Source: Escherichia phage 4MG
Sequence record: NC_022968.1
Length of the DNA stretch: 64,000 bases
Reading direction: 5' to 3' (one strand)
Position 1 is the first letter of the stretch, and each line of letters begins with the position of its first letter. Below are positions 3,838 to 56,925 of the stretch, one piece after another. The notes under the pieces are model-generated. The model made no database searches. It had not been told where the DNA came from and saw only the letters and a program-made list of their open reading frames with translations. The position numbers and the translations under genes were made by a program.

Positions 3838-4105
3838 CGAGGTCTACATTCCCCGTTTTCGTGTTTACCCAGCGGGTTTCTGTCTTTGTTGCGTGCATTG
3901 TATGTCCACAACCAAAGGAAATGATGCAAACACCTGGGCCGTGGGCTTCAAGATCAGCTTCAAATTCCTGTTTACAGACTTTACACTCCATCATCACTGG
4001 TCCAAACATCTTAGGCTCCTTAATATAATATGGATTTGTTGGTGTGTTATTACACGTAAGGCAATCTCGTACTGGGACTTCATGCCACTTGCATGGATTT
4101 TCCAT
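3794..4105 (-). CDS. hypothetical Cys-rich protein, zinc-ribbon-like (103 aa; true start may be internal Met)
   Basis: Track ORF; CKVCKQ ... CGH cysteine pairs. Confidence 0.4.
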   Translation of the reverse strand: MENPCKWHEVPVRDCLTCNNTPTNPYYIKEPKMFGPVMMECKVCKQEFEADLEAHGPGVCIISFGCGHTMHATKTETRWVNTKTGNVDLVETEKQIKGSDFSA

Positions 4106-4144
4106 AGCCTACCTATCAGAAAAGCCCCCGAAGGGGCTTGTGGA

Positions 4145-52905: not shown

Positions 52906-53133
52906 ATGTTTATATTCAGCAAAGAAGTGGTCAACACCCTTCTGAAAGAGGCCCACCAGGAATTAACAAGGGTTGAGGATGCCCTGCTTGCACTTCACGA
53001 CAGGGGGTACGGAATGTGCTCTGAAGAGTTCGTTTCCCTGATGGAGTATCGCAGACTGACAAAGAATTCCATTGAAGATCTGGAGAAGAAGTTCAAAAGA
53101 CTTGGGCTGATTGAGGAGATCCTGAAGAAATGA
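52906..53133 (+). CDS. hypothetical protein (75 aa)
   Basis: Track ORF; AAGGAGAACACAAC SD. Confidence 0.45.
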   Translation: MFIFSKEVVNTLLKEAHQELTRVEDALLALHDRGYGMCSEEFVSLMEYRRLTKNSIEDLEKKFKRLGLIEEILKK

Positions 53134-53369
53134 AAGAGCACGAGTTCAAAATACGTTTCGACAAAGCCACAGGTGAGTGGCGTGTATGGGTGAAGGTTCC
53201 GTTCCTGTTCTTCTGGACCTGCTGGCAGGTTGTTTTCAAAACCCAGAATGGCATATACGGAAATCCGTTCTTTGATAGCGAAAGAGACTGCGAGAAAGGC
53301 ATCGAGAAGTGGAAGCTGGAAAACGCACCGGACTATGAGCGTTACAACACAACCCACCGCAAACTCTAA
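53130..53369 (+). CDS. hypothetical protein (79 aa)
   Basis: Track ORF; coupled start. Confidence 0.45.
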   Translation: MKEHEFKIRFDKATGEWRVWVKVPFLFFWTCWQVVFKTQNGIYGNPFFDSERDCEKGIEKWKLENAPDYERYNTTHRKL

Positions 53370-53378
53370 GGAGAACAC

Positions 53379-53666
53379 ATGGCTTTCCACAAGGTTGTAA
53401 AAGCGCCTGCGAAACGGGCGCATATAAAGAATTACCCACACAAGAAGTCTGAAGCGAGAGACCGAAGAGTGAAGTGGTTATGGGACTATACAAAATCACT
53501 TCTTGGGGTTATCCTCGTAAACAGCGGCTATCATAAGTTTCACTTCTACGAACAATGGAGTGCTGTGAAAAAAGAGCTTAAAGAACTCGATGCTTACGAT
53601 GAGCGAAACACCTGGCTCATTATCTCAGATGTTAAGTGGGAGCACAACAGATTTTATCGGTGGTGA
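53379..53666 (+). CDS. hypothetical basic protein (95 aa)
   Basis: Track ORF; AAGGAGAACAC SD; last gene of rightward block. Confidence 0.45.
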   Translation: MAFHKVVKAPAKRAHIKNYPHKKSEARDRRVKWLWDYTKSLLGVILVNSGYHKFHFYEQWSAVKKELKELDAYDERNTWLIISDVKWEHNRFYRW

Positions 53667-53679
53667 CCACACAAAAGGG

Positions 53680-53708
53680 TTGACGTAAACTGTCAGCCCT
53701 GTTATAGT
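53680..53708 (+). promoter_or_regulatory. sigma70-like promoter TTGACG-N17-TATAGT firing into the ORF-free island
   Basis: Hexamers read directly 14 nt after last + gene; no ORF with SD follows; coordinates +/-2. Confidence 0.45.
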
Positions 53709-54433
53709 CATTATACGCCACATCTCCTGAAGCGGGAGGATACAATCACCAGACCTGCGTGAAAGGTTGTACACCCTGTTAACATTCTGTCATGTCGATA
53801 AAACACCATTTCATAAACATATACCCCACAACATGTCGATGCTATAAACATGTCTGAAGTGACCCAGCAAATTAGCCGGGGACTAATCGCCTTGCGATAT
53901 ACCCACCCCTCCCCCGCCCGGAGGGAAACGTAAACAGGCCCCTCTCTTTGTGTTTTCTGGCACGAAAATATCCTGAAGAGGCAGGGCCTCGAAGACAGGT
54001 GTTTCTGGGCGCAATCTCTATGTCTGATGTGTTAGACGGACAATCACAGCCCCTCCGGGTTGTCAAGGATCTTTACAAAATATCTGAGAGGTCTGACCAC
54101 GAGACCCTATCGAGTTTTTGGCACGATGATTGCATGATGATTACGTGGCGCAACTAATGATTACAAGTGCAACTATTAGCAATGTGACAGTTTACACCTG
54201 TTACAGCACGATTTGCTCTTGACTTGCTTATATTTGTGTGAATGAGCCTATTTAACATAATACACGTTATGCGAACCACAGATCACCGGGAGACAGGCCA
54301 TATAGTCACATATGTTATCATTGCATCAGTGAACCATACCACAAGGCAACCAATAGCCTGCTACATGTTACCACCACGACAGTTTCACGCTGTTATTATT
54401 CATTTTGTGGGGTGTTTTGTCGATGAGAATACA

Positions 54434-54446
54434 AATGATAATCATT
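54434..54446. promoter_or_regulatory. Fur-box-like palindromic 13-mer AATGATAATCATT
   Basis: Identical to the central 13 nt of the E. coli Fur consensus GATAATGATAATCATTATC; second identical copy at 54584-54596. Confidence 0.4.
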
Positions 54447-54583
54447 CTGAATACGATTTCGATTTCAGTTTCGAAATGAAAACCATTCTCAAATGGAAAA
54501 TATTTTGTAAATCTGCCATAAAAAGCTTGACACAGAGGGAAAAATGTGTTTAGCATTTAAGCCTATCTTGAGCATCCAACCGC

Positions 54584-54596
54584 AATGATAATCATT
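54584..54596. promoter_or_regulatory. Fur-box-like palindromic 13-mer AATGATAATCATT (second copy)
   Basis: Exact repeat of 54434-54446, 150 bp away. Confidence 0.4.
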
Positions 54597-54782
54597 AACG
54601 TTAAGCCTTGCTACGCCTGGCTTTAATAGACTTTTCCTATCAATAAAAAGCTTGACAGTTTACACCTTTTCATGCTCAAGAAAACCGCTTTTCATCGGGC
54701 ATCTAGCCCGGTTTACAACATGATTAATCATGATTTGTCAATCATTAAACATGATTAAACCGCTTTTGATCTTCATAACCTG

Positions 54783-54802
54783 GCGACACAATAACACGAG
54801 GG
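54783..54802. repeat. left arm of perfect 20-bp inverted repeat GCGACACAATAACACGAGGG
   Basis: Exact reverse complement of 54976-54995; arms 173 bp apart with nested 11-bp inverted repeat. Confidence 0.7.
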
Positions 54803-54975
54803 CGATCATGCGATAGCGTGATCGGTGTTATCGTGGCGAGGTTATAAAATACTTCAACTATGCAATAGTTGCATTATGAATTATTCATTGTTCTAGTCAT
54901 CTTGTCTGTTAACGCTTAGGCGCTAACGAGCCACGATAACGCGAACGAAAACGATATTTATTATCGTTTGAGTTA

Positions 54976-54995
54976 CCCTCGTGTTATTGTGTCGC
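54976..54995. repeat. right arm of perfect 20-bp inverted repeat CCCTCGTGTTATTGTGTCGC
   Basis: Exact reverse complement of 54783-54802. Confidence 0.7.
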
Positions 54996-55131
54996 TCGCT
55001 CCGCTCGCGCCACTCACCCCGATAACGCGAACGATATTTTTATTTGACAAAAGATGATTACTATGCTCAAAAAAGACAGTTCACACAAAGGGTTAGATGA
55101 GAAAAGTTATCATTTCAGGGCTTTTGCTTCG

Positions 55132-55327
55132 TATTCACTCAATTTGCATAAAAACACGGTGTTTATTCACTTGATAACCTGCGTTATCATTTTTGGGGTG
55201 TGAGTGAGTCAAAGGCGGGTAATGATACACGATTAAACGCAATATAACGCGTTTTGAGAGGGTTTATCTGTTAGGCTTGCCGTTGTATGGCTTCAAAGAG
55301 ATCTCTTTAAATTCACTTTTTTGCATA
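55132..55327 (-). promoter_or_regulatory. regulatory cassette C: two conserved boxes (ATTCACT-N-TTGCATA type) about 179 bp apart, with AAAGAGATCTCTTT palindrome
   Basis: Boxes at about 55132-55150 and 55311-55327; paralogous to cassettes at 56538-56732 and 61218-61414. Confidence 0.5.
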
Positions 55328-55376
55328 AAGACGGGTAAAGATTTAGTGTTTTGTTTGGGGTGTTGGTATGATATGC

Positions 55377-55400
55377 AAAAAGCCGGGGATTATCCCGGCC
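55377..55400 (-). terminator. intrinsic terminator of leftward block (GCCGGGGA-UUA-UCCCGGC + UUUUU on minus strand)
   Basis: Hairpin and U-run immediately downstream of last minus gene (stop at 55420). Confidence 0.6.
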
Positions 55401-55419
55401 TTACTTGGTGTGACTTTGA

Positions 55420-55635
55420 TCAGATAAACATTGCAGCATAATGATCGTAAAGGTCTTGCGCTTGTCTGGCAGGCCAGCGGCTTTCATCCACCGGGACACG
55501 TAGATCAATCGGGCGGCGATCTTTCAATCCGTTAACATGAAAAAATGTTTCACCTGTAAGCTGTACGATCTCCAGTTTAACGAGGTTGTCAGAATCTTTT
55601 ACGGTCTGCTGAATGAGAATAGTAGTCATTTGCAA
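55420..55635 (-). CDS. hypothetical protein (71 aa)
   Basis: Track ORF; coupled to upstream gene. Confidence 0.45.
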   Translation of the reverse strand: MQMTTILIQQTVKDSDNLVKLEIVQLTGETFFHVNGLKDRRPIDLRVPVDESRWPARQAQDLYDHYAAMFI

Positions 55636-56001
55636 TTACTCCACAATTGTGATGGTTTGACCTGGTAACAGGAAATTCCCGGTTTTATCGTCAAAAATTC
55701 CGGTTGCACTTGTTACGGTGACCGTTTCGCCTGATGTCACGATCATAACTTGGGATTCAGTTGGATAATCAAAGGTGTAAAGGCGAGGTGTTAACGGCTT
55801 GCCGCTTTCTTTCGAATAGTTAACATCATAATCATAAACGGCTTGACATTTGATCGCTACCGTTTCGGCCTTGTAATAGTGGTTATCATAGCCATAGCCA
55901 CGCATAAACGGCGCGGATATTTCCAGGACTTCACACAGCGAACCACGAAACAACATATCGCCTTTTTTCAGGTCTAAAAGGTTGATTTTCTTAAGATCCA
56001 T
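55636..56001 (-). CDS. hypothetical protein (121 aa)
   Basis: Track ORF; GAGAGG SD after stem-loop. Confidence 0.45.
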   Translation of the reverse strand: MDLKKINLLDLKKGDMLFRGSLCEVLEISAPFMRGYGYDNHYYKAETVAIKCQAVYDYDVNYSKESGKPLTPRLYTFDYPTESQVMIVTSGETVTVTSATGIFDDKTGNFLLPGQTITIVE

Positions 56002-56429: not shown

Positions 56430-56485
56430 TTGATTTACCTCTTAGTCTGTTTTGTTTGATTTCGTTTGTTTGCCCTACGAGATAA

Positions 56486-56514
56486 ATATTACTATAGGGG
56501 GATCAGCACGTCAA
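56486..56514 (-). promoter_or_regulatory. sigma70-like promoter on minus strand, TTGACG-N17-TAATAT
   Basis: Read on reverse complement; about 50 nt upstream of ATG at 56429 and about 25 nt downstream of conserved box. Confidence 0.5.
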
Positions 56515-56537
56515 TAGCTCTTTACATAACTTTACAC

Positions 56538-56732
56538 TATTCACTGTTTGCATCTTTATGCATCGCTATGCAATTCATTTCATGGTGAAATTACTTTTTA
56601 GGCGTTTTTCCGTGTCAAGCTATTTTTATATAGCCTTTAAACGTCCTGTAACGCGTTTTAAGCGGTTTTGCGTCCAGGCTGTACCCTAGCCCGTTTTAAC
56701 GGAGATCTCCCCATATTCACTATTTTGCATAG
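56538..56732 (-). promoter_or_regulatory. regulatory cassette D: two conserved boxes about 175 bp apart, with GGAGATCTCC palindrome and Fur-box-like motifs nearby
   Basis: Boxes at about 56538-56553 and 56713-56732; internal segment shares AACGCGTTTTAAGCGG-like motif with cassettes C and E. Confidence 0.5.
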
Positions 56733-56884
56733 GATTTGAGGGTGTAGTGATAATCATTCTCATCGCCCAGCGATTAGCCCCCGGCTAACTATCTAAATGA
56801 TAGTGATTCTCATTACCGGAATAACAGGCACCTCCGGTGGCTTTCCTCCGGTGTCCATCGTTGCCGCTTCCACAAAAGAATAAC

Positions 56885-56912
56885 AAAAACCGGGACAGAA
56901 AACAAGCCCCGG
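56885..56912 (-). terminator. candidate intrinsic terminator on minus strand (CCGGGG...CCCGG hairpin + UUUUU)
   Basis: Immediately downstream of stop of 56926-57243; loop is long (about 13 nt), so weaker call. Confidence 0.35.
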
Positions 56913-56925
56913 AATTGTAAAGATT

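Follow-up and report, generated by a model that had tools for sequence, protein, structure and literature searches.

A repeat-dense island between convergent gene blocks

The question raised by this locus is what a gene-free stretch of 1753 bp does between two gene blocks that converge on it. The window, by which we mean the whole 64,000-nt stretch of DNA that was analysed, is Seunavirus-like (Vequintavirinae, rV5-like myovirus), and the phage is a new species within Seunavirus, a 145-kb myovirus. EC152 and GAP31 were 90–91% identical to it across approximately 6 kb of genes, and GAP31 was 91% identical across the island. The island (53667–55419) is bounded by a plus-strand ORF ending at 53666 and a minus-strand ORF ending at 55420. 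The genes flanking it are mosaic, whereas its non-coding blocks are conserved across genera. A rho-independent terminator of the minus-strand gene block (GCCGGG-ATAATC-CCCGGC-TTTTT) was found on the minus strand at 55377–55399, 21 nt past the stop codon. It coincides with a conserved block, AAAAGCCGGG, and the homologous site carries a terminator annotation in PVP-SE1 and Mydo; the output of a simple terminator scan did not include it.

The initial annotation had described a non-coding, repeat-dense island, and each element that it listed (a promoter, promoter-like TTGACA sites, 13-mers, a palindrome, repeats and inverted repeats) was located where it had been placed. What it missed were the probable genome termini, around which the island is organised. 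Repeated 11-mers occupied 40 direct and 37 inverted positions, compared to means of 4.2 and 2.6 in other 1753-bp windows and 1.3 and 2.7 in Markov simulations. These values were unmatched by any non-overlapping stretch of that length, and no other 1.75 kb of the window is as dense in repeats. The top-enriched 7-mer was ATGATTA, with 8 copies in the island and 13 in the remaining 62 kb (P 8e-9), GACAGTTTACACCT was repeated at 54186 and 54654, and TTGACA occurred five times, mildly above the phage-wide rate.

It is extremely unlikely that the island encodes small proteins of the kind annotated in relatives as KB57_185, GAP31_073/074 and DP CDS 220-423. ORFs of 41–103 aa are present, the longest being 103 aa, and they have tblastn matches in relatives and annotations in several records. 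However, substitutions in the two largest ORFs showed no codon periodicity across 11 genomes and were evenly distributed over the codon positions, with 25/20/27 and 50/44/52 variable columns. The ORF at 55054–55203 was frameshifted in six relatives, start codons and ORF ends varied between genera, and ORFs were broken in Henunavirus. A Pfam scan of three island ORFs gave no match at the cut-off, and the apparently conserved residues were conserved DNA motifs, such as TTGACA, reverse-translated. Protein-coding ORFs were thus rejected, and the proposal of a non-coding island between convergent gene blocks was borne out by the ORF ends and by the codon, frameshift and Pfam checks.

A predicted direct terminal repeat with conserved boundaries

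For three relatives, fixed genome ends have been mapped or appear as annotations. The Hena1 annotation places terminal repeats at 1–519 and 148324–148842 (519 bp), and the record of phage DP carries the same 514-bp repeat_region at either end. For KPP-1, PhageTerm and two-fold coverage were reported to show a 514-bp direct terminal repeat (DTR) at 116316–116829, and packaging was of the T7 type (PMC9862379). All three repeats, which come from Mydovirus and Henunavirus and none from Seunavirus, aligned to 54035–54550 of the window, and both boundaries were alignable. By homology, the window phage would therefore have a DTR of 516 bp at this position. The DTR is single-copy in the circularised sequence, and both ends of the virion DNA are expected to carry one. 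The length falls within that of the class (approximately 0.46–0.52 kb), which includes the 458-bp terminal redundancies of the vequintaviruses EdH4 and HdK5 (PMC6563267), and the site in a gene-free convergent gap matches as well.

The boundaries themselves were conserved. At the left boundary (54028–54042, plus strand), TGTGTTA/GACGGACA, the predicted cut lies between 54034 and 54035, and this sequence matched the DTR ends of Hena1, DP and KPP-1 base for base, as well as base 1 of the KP12 record. The right cut would lie between 54550 and 54551, within TTGACA-N12-NGTGTT/TA(G/A)CA, a form found in 13 of 14 relatives and also in an rV5-like form. Across three genera, the distance from the left motif, ...TGTGTTA/GACGGACA, to the right motif, TTGACA-N12-NGTGTT/TAGCA, was 509–519 bp in 13 of 14 relatives, and ends predicted solely from the two motifs reproduced the annotations of Hena1, DP and KPP-1 exactly. 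The right motif was absent from AV124, and rV5 had neither motif in the form seen in the window phage. The last 180 nt of the DTR (54371–54550) had equal length in 11 genomes and no codon periodicity.

Of the records with an end inside the island, only KP12 starts exactly at a boundary; it begins at GACGGACA and its final bases are ...GGTGCTA. The record ends of SalP219 and SEW_6S were rejected as physical ends, since exact end/start overlaps of 127 and 91 nt and breaks at inverted-repeat arms marked them as assembly artefacts. The ends of K45PH128C2 and LNA4 within the island were rejected as well, as these are messy assemblies.

From this homology, the island is very probably the region in which the chromosome ends lie (the concatemer junction) in a myovirus with short terminal repeats, and the initial annotation's suggestion of a packaging region gained support, with a terminal repeat and both cut sites placed inside the island as mapped in relatives. 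Older restriction-based work points elsewhere. The rV5 genome was called circularly permuted (PMC3606486), and PVP-SE1 (Seunavirus) is called terminally redundant and circularly permuted in the passage that cites Santos 2011 (PMC3475682). A circularly permuted, headful-packaged genome, in which the island would be a termination buffer between convergent operons and perhaps hold a pac site, would also agree with the convergent layout and the minus-strand terminator at 55377–55399. Such a genome is nevertheless very improbable, given the three relatives with fixed ends in the homologous island and identical boundary motifs. A buffer would also not preserve approximately 1.7 kb of ordered blocks, a spacing of 509–519 bp and covarying helices across genera.

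Conserved motifs inside and around the repeat

Several short motifs accompany the predicted ends. Approximately 62–72 nt outside the left cut site lies CGAAAATATCC (53963–53973, plus strand). Its core, AAAATATC, recurs within the DTR at 54077–54084 and has three copies in the island, compared to 0.06 expected, and at least 12 of 13 relatives keep GAAAATATC. The conserved block GGATCTTTACAAAATATC (54066–54084) includes the 12-mer TTTACAAAATAT (54072–54083), 37 nt inside the left end. Its inverted partner (54500–54511) lies in AAATATTTTGTAAAT (54498–54512), 39 nt inside the right end of the DTR, and the two arms, 12 nt long and 100% complementary, are thus placed symmetrically inside both ends. 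The most conserved block of the DTR was ATTTAACATAATACACGTTATGCG (54250–54277), which occurs once in the window and was found in the non-coding region of rV5 (30 nt, 87% identity, E 3e-5).

Two arrays of short repeats were present. The first, a cluster of ATGATTA-type repeats at 54121–54163, has three plus-strand copies and an 11-bp tandem unit (TRF, period 11 at 54121–54142). It is ATGATT-rich in Seunavirus and Henunavirus and degenerate in Mydovirus. The second is an AT-rich array of AACATGATTA units at 54717–54760 (TRF, period 10, 4.3 copies), which contains the palindrome ATGATTAATCAT (54720–54731) and the invariant TTTGTCAA (54734–54741).

The Fur-box-like 13-mer AATGATAATCATT was found in two exact copies, one at 54434–54446, 104–116 nt inside the right boundary, and one at 54584–54596, 34 nt outside it. 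We take it to be the central 13 bases of the Fur box consensus GATAATGATAATCATTATC. With up to two mismatches, there were 14 matches in the window compared to 2.8 expected. The flanks of the two copies do not complete the 19-mer, and within the island AATGATAATCATT falls into a wider family of ATGATTA/ATGATAA repeats. Conservation was partial, as other genera keep just ATGAGAATCATT-like variants. By resemblance, AATGATAATCATT is Fur-box-like and a candidate Fur site.

Towards the right side of the island, a palindrome or hairpin, TTGATAAC-CTGC-GTTATCA, is followed by TTTTT on the plus strand (55171–55194), and both of its arms covary in Mydovirus (TTAATAAC...GTTATTAA). A conserved module, GAGATCTC-ATTCACT-TTTTGCATA (55263–55335), recurs in a different intergenic gap at 56703–56733.

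Promoter-like sites point along the plus strand

Just past the last plus-strand gene, a sigma-70-type promoter (TTGACG-17-TATAGT, extended TGn) was located on the plus strand at 53680–53708, directed at the right-end copy of the DTR. Its pattern, TTGAC(C/G)...TAT(A/G/T)(G/C)T, was conserved in most Seunavirus and Mydovirus relatives. Downstream of it, a small plus-strand hairpin (CUCCUG/CGGGAG) was predicted at 53724–53738; at the equivalent position in Mydovirus, a hairpin of differing sequence was seen by eye in the alignment. The left unique part (53710–54034) was rejected as a structured RNA, with a z-score of merely −1.65.

The 15-mer ATAAAAAGCTTGACA occurred in two exact copies (54518–54532 and 54643–54657). 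The first begins a plus-strand promoter-like site, AAAAAGC-TTGACA-N18-TAGCAT (54518–54556, 10/12 matches), that straddles the right boundary. The −35 hexamer and the spacer lie in the DTR and the −10 hexamer lies in unique DNA, so that a complete promoter would form only at a concatemer junction or at the left end. The second copy is followed by CATGCTCAA (54643–54680, plus strand), and TTGACA(G/C)TT was found here in 13 of 13 relatives. The TTGACA sites lie +493, +618 and +1010 nt from the predicted left end, facing inward. For the second and third sites, the spacing to a conserved ATGCT was 12–25 nt (13–25 nt for the second) and differed between genomes, so they were rejected as canonical promoters and may instead be protein sites. 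The genes adjoining these promoters point the opposite way, so that, unlike in T7, the sites cannot serve as ordinary promoters of early genes. The rV5-like phages are not known to have a phage RNA polymerase.

A structured element maintained by compensatory substitutions

Beyond the AT-rich array, a four-helix folded element of 213 nt was identified on the plus strand at 54783–54995 by covariation and RNAalifold. Stem A pairs 54783–54802 with 54976–54995 (20 nt, 100% complementary) and is followed by hairpin B (54803–54824). Stem C pairs 54825–54837 with 54930–54942 and encloses a variable AT-rich interior, and hairpin D occupies 54944–54973; the inverted repeat 54827–54837/54930–54940 is thus nested inside 54783–54802/54976–54995. 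In 16 genomes, 17 of the 51 pairs showed compensatory changes and 99.8% of cells were paired. The covariation score was reached by none of 500 shuffles, and slid controls paired 24–52% of cells. The element is thus a structured element that is kept by compensatory substitution.

The fold had a minimum free energy of −101.6 kcal/mol, with a z-score of −11.0 on the plus strand and −10.5 on the minus strand. The plus-strand fold was the more stable in 17 of 17 genomes, and all one-sided changes in the helices gave G-U pairs on the plus strand. The element accordingly appears to fold as a single strand, most likely as a plus-strand transcript. As one option, the initial annotation had proposed that structured non-coding RNAs are made here by transcription from both sides. 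Structure was supported by the strong covariation at 54783–54995; transcription from both sides was not supported, as the conserved TTGACA promoter-like sites into and along the island are all on the plus strand, where the fold is also more stable. No terminator was found downstream of the element.

The element is single-copy in each genome, and a weak covariance-model match was found at the equivalent position in rV5. Rfam 15 at the gathering threshold returned only two tRNAs in the window, both outside the island. With E values up to 10 across 53300–55800, six matches far below the gathering scores were returned, none of which overlapped 54783–54995. Two checks had been suggested earlier: the Rfam covariance-model search left the 213-nt element without a match, and comparative alignment with relatives found blocks, boundary motifs and helices conserved across genera. 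When viral contigs were scanned with the invariant 17-mer, 8 of 17 matches were chance matches without the remaining element, and the true matches were all in Vequintavirinae.

Invariant blocks extend outside the fold. The conserved 19-mer GCCACGATAACGCGAACGA (54930–54948, plus strand), the 5′ part of which is the 3′ strand of stem C, is repeated as ACCCCGATAACGCGAACGA at 55016–55034, 86 nt after the first copy; together with one partial inverted copy, there are two direct copies of this invariant 19-mer, and they carry the direct repeat CGATAACGCGAACGA at 54934 and 55020. Immediately past stem A, the conserved GCTCGC repeat GCTCGCTCCGCTCGCGCC (54994–55011, plus strand) is retained in rV5 as GCGACTCCGTCGCGCC.

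The strong covariation, the G-U pairs on the plus strand only and the plus-strand promoter-like sites upstream could be expected of a trans-acting structured RNA, for example a regulator or a decoy against a host defence, that simply lies here and takes no part in packaging or replication. The related phage phiTE encodes an anti-defence RNA, pseudo-ToxI (PMC3475682). This reading is unlikely, as the position of the element beside the DTR is constant in four genera and copies of the invariant blocks also lie outside the fold, as would be expected more of DNA sites that act in cis. The link to pseudo-ToxI was rejected: the phiTE locus is a different one, between tRNA genes (tRNA-Tyr) and phiTE_203 and outside the convergent island, and TRF found no ToxI-like tandem array of 36-nt repeats in the island. 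The element probably works in cis instead, taking part in early transcription or in the replication or processing of the ends. It might, for example, be an RNA that primes replication near the end or forms an R-loop for it, or a fold, in RNA or single-stranded DNA, that is needed to duplicate and cut the DTR.

Discussion

The homology to mapped ends leads to a model in which the virion DNA of the window phage would start at 54035 and, after one full turn of the genome, end at 54550, so that the same 516 bp would be present at both ends. Replicating genomes would be joined head to tail via a single copy of the DTR. As in T7-type packaging, the packaging enzyme would make its cuts at two fixed positions, TGTGTTA/GACGGACA and TGTGTT/TAGCAT, which have a GTG(T/C)T(A) context in common, and the DTR would be duplicated by DNA synthesis after cutting. 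Candidate recognition sites are the inverted 12-mers near both ends, the AAAATATC motifs on either side of the left cut and the ATGATTA arrays with their 10–11 bp phasing. Unique DNA next to the left-end copy of the DTR would carry the inward sigma-70-type promoter-like sites, the first of which would be completed at the junction between the DTR and unique DNA. The roles of the inverted 12-mers, the ATGATTA arrays and the promoters are suggested by position and conservation.

Part of the same DNA may also be a replication origin, another option of the initial annotation, which we regard as possible but doubtful. The tandem TTGACA promoters (54527 and 54652) would supply a priming transcript, the array at 54717–54760 and the AT-rich interior of the fold would be an unwinding or initiator-binding region, and the copies of GCCACGATAACGCGAACGA would be iterons. 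This anatomy recalls iteron origins and the primary origin of T7, where tandem promoters are followed by an AT-rich stretch. In keeping with an origin, the G+C content drops to 0.35–0.37 across 54350–54800, the arrays have periods of 10–11 with enriched ATGATTA, the 19-mer has two direct copies and a partial inverted one, and conserved promoter-like sites lie upstream. On the other hand, no initiator gene was identified, and the same features would fit sites for the small terminase subunit beside a cut. Covariation of the long-range stems favours a single-stranded fold over protein sites on duplex DNA. The GC skew switches sign around the island, but the local profile was uninformative, and skew changes in the rV5-like family follow the direction of transcription (PMC3606486). 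An origin and a terminus are compatible, and the two functions could lie side by side.

Short terminal repeats are already known in Vequintavirinae. The DTRs of Hena1 (519 bp), DP and KPP-1 (514 bp) and EdH4 and HdK5 (458 bp) have homologous sequence and identical boundary motifs, and the window phage, in the different genus Seunavirus, is assigned its ends by sequence homology to them. The records and papers on these relatives give DTR coordinates and do not describe the internal anatomy. The 'non-coding' box of rV5 and the 2.3-kb gap of PVP-SE1 (genes 179/180) represent the same locus, ORF-free and between the same convergent units. The rV5 genome retains only part of this, namely the central block of the DTR and the boundary element with TTGACA, together with a comparable fold built on a long inverted repeat. 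In the passages of the papers that deal with rV5 and PVP-SE1, the gap is left unexplained and the genomes are described as circularly permuted. The fine anatomy and the 213-nt folded element appear to be new.

The predicted fixed ends with a short direct repeat are shared with T7, and PhageTerm assigned KPP-1 to the 'T7 type'. T7 has a 160-bp terminal repeat, and its left-end promoters for the host polymerase, A1–A3, lie at approximately +500 to +750. The inward sigma-70-like TTGACA sites of the window phage, approximately 0.5–1.0 kb from the predicted left end, are similarly placed. An inverted repeat beside the T7 junction was reportedly implicated in end processing by Chung, Nardone and Hinkle in 1990. 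A sigma-70-like promoter overlaps the predicted junction here, and in T7 the concatemer-junction sequence was recently reported to act as an Escherichia coli promoter in some contexts (bioRxiv 10.64898/2026.02.12.705533). In contrast to these likenesses, sequence similarity to T7 is absent, the DTR is three times longer, and the phage is a 145-kb myovirus. At lambda cos (cosQ-cosN-cosB) and at headful pac sites, short protein-binding repeats arrayed in phase with the helix flank the cut site. A predicted cut flanked by helically phased arrays of short repeats is also seen here, but there would be two such cuts, separated by 516 bp, and cohesive ends would be lacking. ColE1 RNA II and the T7 primary origin resemble the island in that one or more promoters are followed by AT-rich DNA and a highly folded transcript, with a possible start beyond it; this is a likeness in layout, the island has no known RNase H or primer site or antisense regulator, and no membership is claimed.

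The findings would redraw the window phage, and probably the whole genus, as linear with fixed ends and a 516-bp DTR in the gap, instead of circularly permuted. This bears on genome orientation, engineering and transduction risk for widely used phages of Salmonella, Cronobacter and Klebsiella. We tentatively propose, while considering it rather unlikely to hold in full, that the 213-nt element and its rV5 counterpart form an undescribed family of structured nucleic acids specific to Vequintavirinae, transcribed from the junction-completed promoter and acting in cis at the chromosome end. If this is true, transcription and the maintenance of the chromosome ends would be coupled, through a cis-acting element, in a large myovirus with short terminal repeats. 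How ends are recognised, cut and duplicated in short-terminal-repeat phages other than T7 is poorly known, and the boundary motifs, the inverted 12-mers, the ATGATTA arrays and the covarying fold offer specific and conserved sites on which to focus mutagenesis and binding experiments.

Gene setting of the island

With Cronobacter phage GAP31 and Enterobacter phage EC152, the island (window 53667-55419), a gene-free 1.75 kb with convergent gene blocks on either side, and a 6-kb coding stretch shared ~90-91% identity. Similarity was lower for PVP-SE1, SSE121 and many phages of Klebsiella, Raoultella, Proteus and Erwinia. Judged by these identities, the window represents a new Seunavirus species (Vequintavirinae, rV5-like myoviruses of ~145 kb). 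The last + strand ORF before the island ends at 53666 and the - strand ORF to its right ends at 55420, with a - strand terminator 21 nt past that end (55377-55399); the records of PVP-SE1 and Mydo mark a terminator at the homologous site. The island homologue is a 2.3-kb gap between genes 179 and 180 in PVP-SE1 and a grey 'non-coding' box on the rV5 map (PMC3606486). A comparison with related phages, proposed in the initial annotation, showed that the island was always present despite mosaic flanking genes. The left neighbour (53130-53666) has homologues in EC152, KPP-1 and Mydo and none in GAP31 or PVP-SE1, and the right neighbour (55420-56001) has homologues in EspYZU15, KE22 and SNUABM01 only. 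Such mosaic flanks around an ever-present island would be the pattern expected for essential cis-acting DNA. Elsewhere in the window are - strand genes for tRNA Lys-CTT (2032-2107) and tRNA Met-CAT (2802-2878). Besides the island, the - strand block held a gene-poor stretch of ~500 bp (56430-56925) with a - strand promoter-like site (56514-56486), a - strand ATAGCTTGACA site (56613-56623) and a cluster of Fur-box-like motifs (56746-56814).

Repeat content and coding status

All elements listed in the initial annotation were recovered at the coordinates given there, and no other 1.75 kb of the window was as dense in repeats as the island. In it, 11-mers recurred at 40 positions as direct and at 37 as inverted repeats, compared to means of 4.2 and 2.6 in other segments and 1.3 and 2.7 in Markov simulations. 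The claim that the island lacks coding capacity also held. The two largest ORFs, 54242-54553 (+) and 54368-54556 (-), showed no codon periodicity, with 50/44/52 and 25/20/27 variable alignment columns by codon position, respectively. ORF starts and ends varied among genera, ORFs were disrupted in Henunavirus, six relatives had frameshifts in the ORF at 55054-55203, and a Pfam scan of three island ORFs gave no match at the cut-off. Several GenBank records annotate small 'hypothetical proteins' here, for which over-prediction in conserved DNA is the best explanation. The annotation of K45PH128C2 (OY978796.1) is out of register and places a 'terminase large subunit' over the non-coding island, and SEW_6S (PQ002171.1) is labelled Demerecviridae and has a Seunavirus-like sequence.

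Probable terminal repeat and chromosome ends

Mapped or annotated direct terminal repeats (DTRs) lie within the homologous gap in three relatives, namely Erwinia phage Hena1 (1-519 and 148324-148842, record annotation), Klebsiella phage DP (514 bp, annotated as identical repeat_regions at both record ends) and Klebsiella phage KPP-1 (514 bp, 116316-116829), for which two-fold coverage and PhageTerm indicated T7-type packaging (PMC9862379). All three DTRs aligned to window 54035-54550, and the junctions matched the annotated relatives base for base. At the left junction, ...TGTGTTA is followed by the cut and GACGGACA, with 54035 as the first repeat base; at the right junction, TTGACA-N12-NGTGTT is followed by the cut and TAGCA, with 54550 as the last repeat base. 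A GTG(T/C)T(A) context precedes both cut sites. Boundaries predicted by searching with the two junction motifs alone agreed exactly with all three annotated DTRs, and 13 of the 14 relatives (Seunavirus, Mydovirus and Henunavirus) had the two motifs at a spacing of 509-519 bp. The KP12 record begins with GACGGACA and ends with ...GGTGCTA. Because of the homology to mapped ends in relatives, we consider it likely that 54035-54550 (516 bp) is the terminal repeat of Escherichia phage 4MG and that the island is the concatemer-junction region.

Replicated genomes would then be joined via a single repeat copy, and terminase would recognize conserved sites near each boundary before cutting at two fixed positions. 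The repeat would be duplicated through DNA synthesis, as has been proposed for the terminal repeat of T7. An origin of replication was among the functions suggested in the initial annotation; one adjacent to the repeat would be compatible with the terminal-repeat reading, and we regard it as possible although doubtful. Short terminal repeats are already documented in Vequintavirinae, and the core identity of the present locus adds another case; 458-bp terminal redundancies were reported for the vequintaviruses EdH4 and HdK5 (PMC6563267), and passages in older work describe PVP-SE1 and rV5 as circularly permuted (PMC3606486, PMC3475682).

The repeat is marked by an exact 12-nt inverted repeat, TTTACAAAATAT (54072-54083) versus ATATTTTGTAAA (54500-54511), with arms 37 and 39 nt inside the DTR ends that are both kept in Seunavirus and Mydovirus. 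AAAATATC flanks the left cut on both sides (53965 and 54077), and GAAAATATC (53964-53972) is kept in at least 12 of 13 relatives. The best-conserved stretch is a central block, ATTTAACATAATACACGTTATGCG (54250-54277), which is present once in the window and can be recognized as far away as rV5. At the right end of the DTR, its final 180 nt (54371-54550) have an identical length in 11 genomes without codon periodicity, which points to constrained spacing between DNA sites. An insertion of ~68 bp (CCGTTACGGACCGGATACCCGGCAATGCTAAAGCATTGAAATAGTTAC...) at the point corresponding to ~54607 is present in PVP-SE1, KPP-1, KB57 and Mydo and absent from the window, GAP31, DP and Ro1, a patchy distribution that cuts across genera.

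Promoter-like sites

The + strand site at 53680-53708, which is conserved and matches sigma-70 promoters well, has an extended -10 hexamer; it follows the last + strand gene and points toward the right-end repeat. Another + strand site, AAAAAGC-TTGACA-N18-TAGCAT (54518-54556), straddles the right DTR boundary with the -35 hexamer and spacer inside the repeat and the -10 hexamer in unique DNA, so that the complete site would exist only at the left end of the chromosome or at a concatemer junction. Two further + strand TTGACA sites (54652 and 55044), conserved in the alignment of relatives, may be protein sites rather than promoters because the gap between them and the conserved ATGCTCAA motif ranges over 12-25 nt among genomes. 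From the left end, the TTGACA sites face inward at about +493, +618 and +1010 nt. The left end of T7 carries host-polymerase promoters, which these sigma-70-like sites resemble, but in Escherichia phage 4MG the genes beside them point the opposite way.

The folded element

At 54783-54995 (213 nt), the nested inverted repeats fold into four helices: closing stem A (20-21 bp), hairpin B, stem C and hairpin D. Stem C is an invariant 13 bp (GTGTTATCGTGGC with GCCACGATAACGC) around a variable AT-rich interior. Covariation was analyzed with RNAalifold in a 16-genome alignment, with 500 shuffles and with partners slid 1-3 columns. Compensatory double changes were found in 17 of the 51 pairs and standard pairs in 99.8% of cells; the observed covariation was reached in 0 of 500 shuffles, and slid partners paired in only 24-52%. 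In Hena1 and SNUABM01, the sequence of stem A was almost wholly different with the pairing still perfect. For the + strand, the fold energy was -101.6 kcal/mol (z -11.0), against -88.3 (z -10.5) for the - strand, and the + strand fold was stabler by 8-18 kcal/mol in 17 of 17 genomes, which are related and not 17 independent observations. One-sided changes were all G-U on the + strand, where the other strand would have A-C. Simple arm-to-arm homogenization of a DNA palindrome would not be expected to leave the G-T pairs that are kept here, and duplex DNA is unlikely to extrude long-range stems that span a 170-nt interior, so a single-stranded fold, most simply in a + strand transcript, appears likeliest. 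A trans-acting RNA is considered unlikely, less probable than a role in cis or an adjacent origin. The initial annotation had offered an origin, a packaging or regulatory hub or a structured RNA locus, and was partly supported: packaging by the homology to mapped ends, and a structured element by covariation.

The proposed Rfam search matched no family to the folded element. A covariance model built from it found one copy per genome and, in a search over 2.8 kb of rV5, a weak match to either strand at the equivalent position (E 1e-6 on the - strand, 6e-5 on the + strand). The rV5 fold at this position is closed by a perfect 18-bp inverted repeat and is just as stable (-81.4 kcal/mol, z -10.9); the GC-rich GCGAC/GCTCGC repeat known from the window comes next. 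A GCTCGCTCCGCTCGCGCC repeat (54994-55011) lies directly after the closing stem. This repeat beside the stem may be compared with the GCTC-repeat Rep-binding element that adjoins a T-shaped hairpin in AAV terminal repeats. The invariant 19-mer GCCACGATAACGCGAACGA has a second copy 86 nt downstream, outside the fold, and may be an iteron bound by a protein or offer the stem C 5' strand another pairing partner. The GenBank records SalP219 and SEW_6S end exactly at the outer inverted-repeat arm (end/start overlaps of 127 and 91 nt), and two IMG/VR contigs terminate within the fold; all were rejected as physical ends and attributed to assembly breaks from inverted repeats. A relationship to the pseudo-ToxI RNA of phiTE was checked and discarded, as the phiTE locus lies elsewhere and not in the convergent island.

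Iterated motifs

Among 7-mers, ATGATTA/TAATCAT was the most strongly enriched (P 8e-9): the island has 8 copies and the remaining 62 kb has 13. TRF identified arrays of period 11 (54121-54142) and period 10 (4.3 copies, 54717-54760), the latter holding the 12-bp palindrome of the initial annotation. The 'Fur-box-like' 13-mers belong to the ATGATTA family and are only partially conserved in other genera, and Fur binding is therefore not claimed. By eye, ~8 close-set CTGTT(T/C)AC-type repeats were seen in ~150 bp of the rV5 non-coding region (3980-4135); a stricter CWGTTYACRC scan gave only 3 in that non-coding region. A related motif, GACAGTT(T/C)ACAC, has 3-4 copies in the island of the window (54186, 54378, 54654 and 55075). 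The module GAGATCTC-N6-ATTCACT-N-TTTTGCATA was seen at the right edge of the island (55263-55335) and in another intergenic gap of the - strand block (56703-56733). Its 43-nt block 55263-55305, the sole part of the island matched by BLASTN in Serratia phage Kashira and Acinetobacter phage ABPH49, sits in those phages between two same-strand genes, and the module is probably a regulatory one that is reused. The palindrome TTGATAAC-CTGC-GTTATCA followed by TTTTT (55171-55194), with arms that co-change in Mydovirus (TTAATAAC...GTTATTAA), is a candidate for a weak + strand terminator or for a dimer operator.

The records and papers examined gave no description of the base-exact boundary motifs common to three genera, of the symmetric inverted 12-mers and boundary-split promoter, or of the phased ATGATTA arrays and covarying 213-nt fold. 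What is shown for the island is its homology to mapped ends, its conservation, the covariation and its non-coding status. Of the roles considered for the fold and phased repeats, we rate action in cis as the most likely, whether for replicating or processing the ends or for early transcription. The island holds a well-supported, undescribed structured element, which makes end maintenance in these phages directly testable.
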